A stretch of 64,000 nucleotides of DNA. Origin: a virus. The position numbers were made by a program, and so were the translations under genes. Positions 35,514-35,926 of the stretch are shown here, in pieces (positions within the stretch are counted from its first letter, which is position 1; each line of letters starts with the position of its first letter). Below the pieces are notes generated by a model, which saw only the letters and a program-made list of their open reading frames with translations, ran no database searches and was not told the DNA's origin. Location: the UHGV virus genome UHGV-0332176; one strand, 5' to 3'.

Positions 35514-35536
35514 GAAGTTATTTATTAAATAACTTC
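35514..35536 (+). promoter_or_regulatory. Conserved 5' hairpin (11-bp stem, loop ATT) followed by AAAGGGG SD, preceding paralog A
   Basis: GAAGTTATTTATTAAATAACTTC. The same architecture with a different stem sequence occurs at 42501-42525. Confidence 0.5.
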
Positions 35537-35548
35537 AAAGGGGTTAAG

Positions 35549-35926
35549 ATGGCTGATATAAGTAAAATAGATATGAAAAGAATCAATGGATTACTTGATA
35601 AATTAGAAGAAGTAACCAATAAAATTAATTCAATGAAATATGTTATTGAATCTGGTTCTAATGATAATGGTTGGTATCGTAAATGGAGTGATGGATTTAT
35701 TGAACAATGGGGTTTTCGCACTTCAAATACAACAAACCAAACAATTAATCTTCCAACTTCTTTTTCAAATACATCATATTATGTTAATTTTATTCAATAT
35801 CGTCCATTACAATCTTCTGCTGGTTGGGATTATCATTATGTCATCAGAACATCTGTTACAAAATCATCTTTCCAAATTAATGTTGCTGATACTGATGGAA
35901 TAAATTGGTATGCTTGTGGTTATTAA
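35549..35926 (+). CDS. Small protein, paralog A of a duplicated family (MADISKIDMKRINGL...WYACGY), 125 aa
   Basis: Near-identical N-terminus and identical C-terminal WYACGY with the ORF at 42539..42880. Plus-strand gene embedded among minus-strand genes. Confidence 0.6.
   Translation: MADISKIDMKRINGLLDKLEEVTNKINSMKYVIESGSNDNGWYRKWSDGFIEQWGFRTSNTTNQTINLPTSFSNTSYYVNFIQYRPLQSSAGWDYHYVIRTSVTKSSFQINVADTDGINWYACGY

Follow-up and report, generated by a model that had tools for sequence, protein, structure and literature searches.

Why should two small plus-strand genes of one phage, each an island flanked by minus-strand genes, share their first and last codons and be preceded by hairpins of the same shape written in different letters? 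The question is raised by a stretch of 64,000 nucleotides (nt) of the virus genome UHGV-0332176, hereafter the window, which is a 25% GC fragment of a myovirus; we refer to the two genes as mini-fibre genes A and B, and to the palindromes that precede them as palindromes A and B. Each palindrome abuts a GGGG Shine-Dalgarno (SD) sequence. Comparison with relatives demonstrates that the finding is real and reaches well past the limits of the window: the receptor-binding genes of a clade of ~285-kb uncultured human-gut jumbo myoviruses come with a cassette for regulation and recombination, built on a portable module of ~60-70 nt consisting of a conserved G, a 29-nt palindrome, the abutting G-rich SD and the coding sequence of an N-terminal peptide. 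Intramolecular pairing of the palindrome stem is under selection. As to its mode of action, we favour, with a probability of about one half, a palindrome transcribed as a 5' stem-loop that serves the expression and the recombination of a mini-fibre regulon; a structure-dependent signal at the DNA level is the main rival, and we hold it to be possible and the less probable of the two.

In the window, each palindrome is formally a perfect 14+1+14 palindrome of 29 nt that closes on a 3-nt loop, with the arms TTTGAAGTTATTT-ATT-AAATAACTTCAAA in copy A and TTTGTGGATATTT-ATT-AAATATCCACAAA in copy B. The two differ at three stem positions, each of them compensated. The first-pass annotation of this DNA had noticed compensatory changes and the ATT loop; the stem, which it gave as 11 bp, is 13 bp long. 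The GGGG follows with a gap of 0 nt, and the ATG lies 9 nt past the palindrome in copy A and 8 or 11 nt past it in copy B, where two in-frame ATGs (42536 and 42539) are available, the second giving 113 amino acids (aa). The window hairpins exceed chance: RNA folding gave -11.0 kcal/mol (z -4.0) for palindrome A and -13.6 kcal/mol (z -4.5) for palindrome B, and none of 200 shuffles was as good. The stems are A/U-rich with 1-4 G-C pairs and have no U-run on the coding strand, the GGGG coming next; neither palindrome was flagged as an intrinsic terminator on the plus strand, and copy A has no T-run on either side. The Rfam 15 covariance models, run over 35000-43500, returned no relevant match even at E <= 1.

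Genes A and B are paralogs (46% aa identity, E 2e-31 in BLASTP). Their coding DNA has three differences within the first 84 aligned nt and is near-identical over the last ~24 nt (..WYACGY and stop), with a diverged middle; the duplicated pair with common 5' ends and C-terminus proposed earlier is thus confirmed, and only the indel needs correction, since it is 21 nt, or 7 codons rather than 8, in the coiled coil, and is accompanied by additional indels inside the knob. The genomic setting was also correctly described: gene A is located between the split TerL halves (ATPase, 35923-36999; nuclease, 29302-30492). The duplication is not an assembly artefact, because both copies recur in independent assemblies (of the comparison sequences other than the window, labelled L001-L110, L084 is 99.8% identical over copy B, and L101 and L090 cover copy A).

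The decisive evidence comes from the relatives. IMG/VR and a metagenome collection were scanned with a pattern in which the apex, the base and the SD were fixed and the mid-stem was left free; all 53 matches were perfectly complementary and fell into eight variants. A search by the N-terminal peptide alone found a palindrome before every small family gene that it retrieved and added further variants (base pairs TTTA..TAAA and TTCA..TGAA, 15-bp arms, and a centre A for T). Loci fetched by protein identity, a route blind to the palindrome, always had it as well and yielded another three variants; no palindrome precedes the homolog found in L108, an unrelated, higher-GC phage. The tally stands at 79 instances in 48 unique contexts, with 18 distinct palindromes plus the L109 type, which amount to 17 different stems; the variants of the window account for 22 (A) and 13 (B) of the instances. 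The length is 29 nt throughout, except for two 31-nt stems (the GAAAGAT and L109 types). Not one mismatch and not one G.T or G.U wobble occurs among the 79 instances and 17 stems, and none of the 48 contexts holds a decayed copy. In a 15-variant alignment, 195 of 195 cells are paired, and six of the 13 pairs have changed on both sides, while no pair shows a change in a single arm; the covariation score, 0.108 in shuffles, is 0.451 here, a value that none of 500 shuffles attained. Within one genome of 287 kb, at least nine modules carry seven different stems, and it is therefore the pairing rather than the stem sequence that is conserved. We conclude firmly that intramolecular pairing of the stem is under selection. 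The functional RNA structure suggested by the first-pass annotation is accordingly upheld as regards selected pairing and conservation in homologues; action at the RNA level is a candidate role, the lack of G.U pairs fitting a DNA hairpin equally well.

Some parts of the module vary much less than others. No variation is seen in the apical 15 nt, TATTTA(T/A)TAAATA, or in the outer two base pairs (TT..AA), and the constraint on an apex made of thermodynamically poor A-U pairs argues for recognition of the apex rather than for mere stability. The centre nucleotide is a coding-strand T in all palindromes but two, which is a strand-specific feature. Of 25 non-redundant contexts, 22 have a G immediately 5' of the palindrome (position -1); A stands at -2 and -4. 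From the end of the palindrome to the ATG there are 8-13 nt in 34 of 37 unique modules. What lies upstream is mostly a divergent late promoter and sometimes a co-directional gene.

The module also behaves as a cassette. Nucleotide homology between paralogs at different loci starts at 35509/35510 in copy A and at 42499 in copy B, which is the 5' edge of the palindrome, and it stops at discrete points, at ~35577 (the end of the peptide), ~35650 and ~35712 (the end of WSDGFIEQWG). Identical upstream flanks lead into different palindromes (L060 versus L061/L088), an identical flank and palindrome lead into different genes (L048, L075 and L094; L001 versus L066), and in one case (L061) the gene behind the palindrome is unrelated. 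L088 has, at a third locus, a knob identical to that of copy B joined to an A-type palindrome and coil. A homolog 86% identical to copy A sits, in another genome, between nuclease genes and near a helicase and a ligase. In L096, a relative with 89% TerL identity, the orthologous position between the N-terminal TerL half and the sheath gene is occupied by a 138-aa member with a GAAAGAT palindrome of 15-bp arms, the SD GAGGA and an unalignable knob. Closest to the window is L101, from a different sample: over 3.2 kb of the same locus the two are 99.0% identical outside 35712-35905 and 43% identical inside, and the difference is a replacement of the knob only. These comparisons show that the module is the left-hand homology block, with WSDGFIEQ(W/G)G as the internal and WYACGY-stop as the right-hand block, and that heads are exchanged by recombination at these blocks, from locus to locus and from strain to strain; the mobile or duplicated cassette and recombination substrate proposed from the window alone is borne out in both respects.

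The proteins encoded by these cassettes are new free-standing members of the Gp53-like fibre-tip family. The product of gene A matches Pfam PF21882 (Gp53-like_C) with 38.6 bits and E 1.5e-9 (gathering cutoff 24.9); that of gene B scores 20.0 bits, below the cutoff of 24.9, and is homologous to A at the E-value given above. Both match the C-terminal ends of PHROG tail-fibre families. Residues 12-125 of A align to PDB 4MTM, the tip of the tail fibre gp53 of Acinetobacter phage AP22 (phmmer, E 6e-6). An AlphaFold2 model of A (pLDDT 84.8) has one helix (residues 9-28) followed by a beta-sandwich, and its top Foldseek matches are the fibre tips of R1/R2 pyocins and of AP22 (4mtm, 6ct8, 6cxb; prob 1.0, TM 0.54-0.55). 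In unrelated, higher-GC phages the same coil and knob, with the motifs WYRKWSDGFIEQGG and WYACGY-stop, form the last ~120 residues of long fibres, and the open reading frames (ORFs) of the window thus encode a stand-alone fibre tip; in the clade of the window the Gp53-like domain is a free-standing protein of 109-150 aa rather than the C-terminus of a long fibre. The proposal that WYACGY marks a fibre-tip domain of the receptor-binding type is thereby supported. The likeness to the Gp53-like_C tips (AP22 gp53, 4MTM) and to the tips of R-type pyocins (6CT8, 6CXB, 6CL5, 6CL6) covers the coiled coil, the beta-sandwich knob, ..SDG.IEQ.G.. and W-Y-A-x-G-Y; the known tips, however, end fibres of several hundred residues, whereas here proteins of 113-150 aa stand free, with their own start, peptide and module, in many copies per genome.

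All palindrome-headed genes begin with M-x-D-(I/T)-S-K-(I/L/V)..R-(I/V)-x-(G/E/D)-L. Of the unique sequences, 26 have AGT and 11 have TCA for the invariant Ser of this peptide, and the use of both codons indicates selection on the peptide and not on the RNA. Behind the peptide are found Gp53-like knobs, Tail Collar domains (PF07484, 1e-19) and at least four further classes without a Pfam match. A 359-aa Mtd-domain protein (Mtd_2nd, PF21916; L054 minus strand, gene start 4265) carries the family peptide behind a canonical late promoter and has no palindrome. The peptide would thus be a common docking or assembly signal that puts alternative trimeric receptor-binding heads on one site of the virion. 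In one relative, a reverse-transcriptase gene (RVT_1) is convergent to a family member (L109 1912-3003; L110 502-1593). Together with the Mtd-domain protein, this neighbour hints at a diversity-generating retroelement acting on the same fibre system; no repeat of the template/variable-region (TR/VR) type was found beside the family member in the 3.4 kb of L109 sequence, and the window encodes no reverse transcriptase. A further fibre-like ORF of the window, at 3875-4402 on the plus strand (175 aa, TTG start, GGGGG as SD), matches C-terminal parts of tail-fibre PHROGs and, weakly, the Peptidase_G2 intramolecular-chaperone domain; it adjoins a homing-endonuclease gene (2871-3839, minus strand) and has neither the palindrome nor the family peptide.

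Features of the two mini-fibre cassettes and their surroundings in the window
Feature	Position	Strand	Description
Palindrome A	35511..35539	+	TTTGAAGTTATTTATTAAATAACTTCAAA; 13-bp stem, AUU loop; apical TATTTATTAAATA invariant; mid-stem GAAGT/ACTTC variable
SD and spacer, copy A	35540..35548	+	GGGG plus 5-nt spacer, GGGGTTAAG; abuts palindrome A and precedes the ATG
Mini-fibre gene A	35549..35926	+	125 aa; N-terminal peptide MADISKIDMKRINGL, coiled coil (helix 9-28), Gp53-like beta-sandwich knob, WYACGY end
Shared N-terminal peptide coding region	35549..35593	+	M-x-D-x-S-K-I..R-I-x-G-L; common to all head classes
Hypervariable knob segment of gene A	35712..35905	+	Between the coding motifs of WSDGFIEQWG and WYACGY
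Palindrome B	42499..42527	+	TTTGTGGATATTTATTAAATATCCACAAA; 13-bp stem, AUU loop; mid-stem GTGGA/TCCAC
SD and spacer, copy B	42528..42538	+	GGGG plus spacer; two in-frame ATGs (42536, 42539)
Mini-fibre gene B	42536..42880	+	113/114 aa; N-terminal peptide of gene A, coil 7 codons shorter, different Gp53-like knob, WYACGY end
Bidirectional intrinsic terminator closing cassette B	42877..42910	.	AAAAAAGAGAGGATTAATCCTCTCTTTTTT; also in paralog cassettes at other loci
T4-type late promoter motif ATAAATAT	35457..35464	-	Of the divergent sheath gene; context, outside the module
T4-type late promoter motif	42468..42475	-	Of the divergent gene 41867-42442; context, outside the module

The ends of the cassettes show some regularities of their own. 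The 3' ends of mini-fibre genes repeatedly overlap the stop codon of the convergent gene by 4 nt (TTAA) with no terminator in between, as at 35923-35926 in the window, 10375-10378 in L057, 5120-5123 on the minus strand of L089 and 1884-1887 in L104; the convergent partners are the N-terminal TerL half, a TnsA-like nuclease, another family member and a peptidase M15. At cassette B the region 42859-42910, which contains the terminator, is homologous to L067, L001 and L045. The terminator stem AAAAAAGAGAGGAT..ATCCTCTCTTTTTT occurs in the window at 17680-17710, after the gene 17134-17679, and at 42877-42910, and relatives have it on mini-fibre cassettes at other loci. An SD-like GAGGGGTAAAC lies at 35481-35494, 20 nt 5' of palindrome A in the region of the long 5' untranslated region (UTR) of the sheath gene, and is kept at the orthologous locus of L096; it could be what is left of a former module, or else belong to the sheath leader. 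Before a methyltransferase gene (24144-25490), at 25511-25521 (minus strand), the 11-nt palindrome core ATTTATTAAAT recurs ahead of AAAAGGA and an ATG, with unpaired flanking arms, and may be due to chance or represent a decayed module.

How such genes are transcribed has to be judged against the late transcription of the phage. The motif (A/T)ATAAATAT is a T4-type late promoter, a call in keeping with a gp55-like late sigma factor gene at 7980-8990 (minus strand). It has 33 sites in the window, 23 of them within 90 nt 5' of a same-strand start and mostly 23-33 nt from it; it precedes most structural and several other genes (e.g. 2867-2874, 7429-7436, 13771-13778, 37065-37072 and 57707-57714). 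Upstream of the palindrome, a minus-strand copy of this motif is found in 19 of 25 contexts. A scan for sigma70 promoters remained at the level of shuffles in this 25% GC DNA (83 versus 80) and is not used as evidence.

According to the reading that we favour, at a probability of roughly 0.5, the module is a portable expression and recombination unit of a mini-fibre regulon. The palindrome would be transcribed and would fold as the 5'-proximal 13-bp stem-loop of each mini-fibre mRNA, and by defining or protecting the 5' end of that mRNA the stem-loop would free expression from the varied upstream contexts, possibly after cleavage between the G and the UUUG of the conserved GUUUG. This string resembles RNase Y/E-type sites that precede structures. 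A further effect of the stem-loop would be to hold the adjacent SD single-stranded, and the invariant A/U apex of the stem-loop may be one recognition site through which all mini-fibre genes are controlled jointly.

Several observations weigh against this proposal. We infer, rather than observe, that the palindrome is present in the mRNA; likewise, that the proteins belong to the virion and that the peptide docks them is read from domain homology and is to be taken as probable only. The complete lack of G.U pairs and mismatches (79 instances, 17 variants) is unusual for an RNA helix and expected if both DNA strands fold. No position-fixed -10/-35 or other conserved promoter exists 5' of the palindrome in the 25 non-redundant contexts, and the late-promoter motif is present on the coding strand in none of them (0/25); most cassettes, as counter-oriented islands, nevertheless need a promoter of their own. 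The analysis turned up no candidate for a trans-acting factor. Three contexts retain the palindrome with the SD and ATG 20-23 nt away, and strict adjacency of the SD is therefore not essential. In four contexts an intrinsic terminator ends 0-6 nt 5' of the palindrome (in L089/L104, for instance, the terminator follows GroEL, and in L107 the palindrome is fused to the T-run). A GroEL/Cpn60 homolog directly 5' of a mini-fibre cassette, with the terminator between them, is encoded at 2978-4633 on the minus strand of L089 and at 1-1410 of L104.

Several of these difficulties are what a DNA-level signal would better account for. The palindrome could be an autonomous hairpin or cruciform promoter whose core TATTTATTAAATA is a variant of the late element, read upon extrusion or melting; transcription would then start near CAAAGGGG and the mRNA would have a very short leader without the hairpin. 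Pairing restricted to Watson-Crick pairs is what one expects where both strands must fold. The homology of the mobile paralogs begins exactly at the palindrome, which is therefore the only conserved non-coding element able to carry a promoter. The cassettes are counter-oriented islands or lie 0-6 nt after terminators, their coding strand lacks the canonical late motif that is found before most other genes and before the 359-aa family member, and the palindrome is kept where the SD is displaced. The core resembles the late motif (TTAAATAT versus ATAAATAT on the coding strand of the B type, with an exact AATAAATAT on the other strand), and the phage encodes the gp55-like late sigma factor. However, the better match lies on the wrong strand, and the coding-strand TTAAATA is a common, non-specific string (143 sites, 13 near gene starts). 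Its distance to the ATG is 17 nt, whereas all canonical late genes have 23-33 nt, and the SD would be at the extreme 5' end; nor does a promoter need the zero SD spacing of ~90% of the copies. The core as a canonical coding-strand late promoter was ruled out by this non-specificity, by the short spacing and by the better match on the opposite strand, the motif (A/T)ATAAATAT being found on the coding strand in 0 of 25 contexts. A promoter that depends on structure thus remains tentative, although it explains better than the transcribed stem-loop the missing G.U pairs, the missing upstream promoter and the copies abutting terminators. Taken more broadly, as a promoter of hairpin or cruciform type, a programmed break site, or both, that would mark every receptor-binding cassette, the structure-dependent DNA signal is a minority view to which we give some weight.

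To our knowledge, hairpin promoters are known only for the virion RNA polymerase (RNAP) of phage N4. Those promoters, three early ones, have 5-7-bp stems and a 3-nt loop and need the giant virion RNAP together with the host single-stranded DNA-binding protein. The palindrome module has in common with them a small hairpin with a 3-nt loop and the conservation of structure rather than of stem sequence; unlike them, it has a 13-bp stem and precedes fibre-type genes, and no N4-like virion RNAP is encoded within the 64 kb of the window, in a genome of ~285 kb, which speaks against the promoter.

If the palindrome acts in DNA, it could also be a recombination hot spot, a cruciform or lagging-strand hairpin cut by a nuclease of the endonuclease VII or SbcCD type, the break promoting head swapping. 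The breakpoints of the mosaicism coincide with the palindrome edges, the pairing is perfect and Watson-Crick only, one family member has, in a relative, PD-(D/E)XK and TnsA-like nuclease genes for neighbours on its flanks, and the stem-loops of PeSLs, the promoter-early stem-loops of T4-type phages, have been proposed as recombination points (PMC2839356). Yet any conserved block gives breakpoints without cutting, and these are equally sharp at the WSDGFIEQWG and WYACGY motifs, which have no palindrome. The position next to the SD, the G at -1 and the strand-specific centre T would be left unexplained, and no dedicated recombinase is evident near the copies in the window. We consider this role improbable; it explains fewer observations than the two readings above, as does the next.

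That next one, which we consider very improbable, is a minus-strand terminator or insulator that would keep antisense transcripts, coming from the convergent neighbour through the small gene, from reaching the divergent late promoter. Palindrome B was flagged as terminator-like on the minus strand, where the stem is followed by TTATTTTTTA, about half of the upstream flanks read C plus a T-rich run on that strand, and convergent genes share 4 nt with the small genes, no terminator intervening. As a general role it was rejected, the T-run missing in copy A and in roughly half of the contexts; moreover, an A-U-only stem base terminates poorly, and neither the SD adjacency, nor the invariant apex, nor the copies after co-directional genes would be explained. 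Lastly, the idea that the hairpin has no function, being a passenger of the duplicated unit to which it belongs or the product of an assembly artefact, can be dismissed in view of 17 stem variants that are all compensated, 48 contexts with no decayed copy, many independent assemblies with both copies and a pair of genes only 46% identical in aa.

Among known systems, the PeSLs are the nearest in behaviour. They combine a sigma70-consensus early promoter, which has an AT-rich UP region, with a G/C-rich (GGGG..CCCC) terminating stem-loop, and they flank unrelated ORFans in hyperplastic regions, where they mediate modular shuffling (Arbiol et al. 2010, PMC2839356; Comeau et al. 2014, PMC4122927). 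The palindrome modules are likewise short repeated cassettes with a stem-loop at the borders of variable genes, where patches of homology and breakpoints lie in or next to the stem-loop and mark the crossover at which the adjacent gene is replaced, and their phage shares T4-type late transcription with the PeSL phages (a gp55-like sigma factor and a TATAAATA-like motif). Unlike PeSLs, they have neither a sigma70 consensus nor a G/C-rich terminator; their stem is A/U-rich with an invariant apex and no U-run, abuts the SD and runs into a conserved N-terminal coding block, and it heads one paralogous fibre-tip family dispersed across the genome.

The internal-protein (IP) loci of T-even phages have been discussed as PeSL analogues (PMC2839356). 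The mini-fibre genes resemble the IP genes as a small family with a short conserved N-terminal peptide, AT-rich regulatory or stem-loop elements and variable, recombining C-terminal parts. The T-even IP loci reportedly have a shared capsid-targeting sequence (work said to be that of Repoila and co-workers in 1994 and of Mullaney and Black in 1996). IPs, however, are packaged inside the head, have their N-terminal peptide cut by the prohead protease and occupy two loci, whereas the mini-fibres, known from their genes, have fibre or receptor-binding folds and occupy dispersed loci.

If the palindrome acts as RNA, the proper comparison is with operator and stabiliser hairpins, such as the T4 gene 43 operator next to its SD, the coat-protein operators of MS2 and PP7, and the 5' stem-loops of ompA and aprE. 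Here too a stem-loop stands at or near the ribosome-binding site, with a conserved apex and a lower stem that is free to covary. The operator hairpins, however, are single-copy per regulon or genome, tolerate G.U and have a proven role as RNA; the palindrome, known from sequence, is present in at least nine copies per genome and is strictly Watson-Crick. Another cassette-bound structure, the attC site of integrons, is an imperfect palindrome with extrahelical bases at the 3' end of the cassette and works with the IntI integrase; the palindrome described here is perfect, sits at the 5' end and abuts the SD, and no integrase was found among the annotated neighbours.

The clade itself has so far been met through metagenomes. 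Among 50,697 deposited phages, megablast found nothing that matches the locus, and tblastn gave only three weak matches (E >= 7e-5); the DNA matches derive from human-gut metagenomes. A protein search returned 71 homologs (102-183 aa); their contigs, 280-293 kb long, carry several each, and many of the homologs have PF21882. One family protein, deposited as 'MAG TPA: putative tail fiber protein [Caudoviricetes sp.]', is present on 285 contigs. Our literature searches found no description of this clade or of the element. A contig of the clade, L100 (CASEYV010000001.1, 283,511 bp), sits as an 'uncultured bacterium' bin in GTDB-derived data, and the 2.8-kb fragment L099 is in a Bacillota metagenome-assembled genome; nothing else came out of a genome scan for a clue to the host, and both are probably mis-binned phage DNA, too weak for a host call and at most a weak host hint. 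Besides the genes already mentioned, the window encodes baseplate wedge, sheath and tube proteins, a prohead protease, a family-B DNA polymerase, NrdD/NrdG, RtcB and an NAD-dependent ligase.

The clade is widespread in human-gut metagenomes and has no cultured relative, and the palindrome module is a sequence tag for its receptor-binding-type genes, one that reveals a repertoire of exchangeable heads together with the precise joints of the exchange; this bears on host range and on the strain-level dynamics of phages and hosts in the gut. The palindrome is also an unusually clean structure-constrained regulatory motif, with 17 compensated variants and none decayed. If it acts as RNA, it would be a compact, natural 5' UTR that insulates a gene from its context. 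If it acts as DNA, it would be a rare hairpin promoter, the second example beyond phage N4; the phage would then possess a plug-and-play system for expressing alternative host-recognition heads and shuffling them across at least nine loci, a new route of host-range diversification alongside diversity-generating retroelements and invertible fibre segments.

Some further features of the window deserve mention. The TerL halves match consecutive parts of phrog_36964 (positions 435-582 and 626-853), and both are on the minus strand, 5.4 kb apart; between them lie an exonuclease gene, a virion protein gene, a 1036-aa sheath gene and mini-fibre gene A, an arrangement also found in L101-L103. The gene at 54514, which the first-pass annotation had attached to the mini-fibre pair on account of a common 13-nt string, does share a start with mini-fibre gene B, and over 16 nt (TAAATGATGGCTGATA). 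It is not a family member: it has no palindrome, its start overlaps the stop of the upstream gene, and there is no protein similarity (BLASTP E 2.3). Its product is a 273-aa protein (54514-55335) with the Cys-rich C-terminus CSRSCQINCQNRCQVSCQACNTKQCHDQNCG, and it is surrounded by three radical-SAM genes (53174, 55348 and 56538); the region 53174-57710 (plus strand) looks like a peptide-modification cluster, similar to those for ribosomally synthesized and post-translationally modified peptides (RiPP-like). Two perfect, G/C-containing hairpins, at 58890-58921 and ~51397-51428, hold in their 3' arm the SD of the next gene (GGAG and AAGGAG, respectively) and are followed by a T-run; the genes concerned are the NAD ligase gene at 58924 and a WYL_2/Sm-like gene of 160 aa at 51431. 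These hairpins are terminators doubling as SD-sequestering structures, and the one of the NAD ligase is preceded by TTGACA-N17-TAAAAT.

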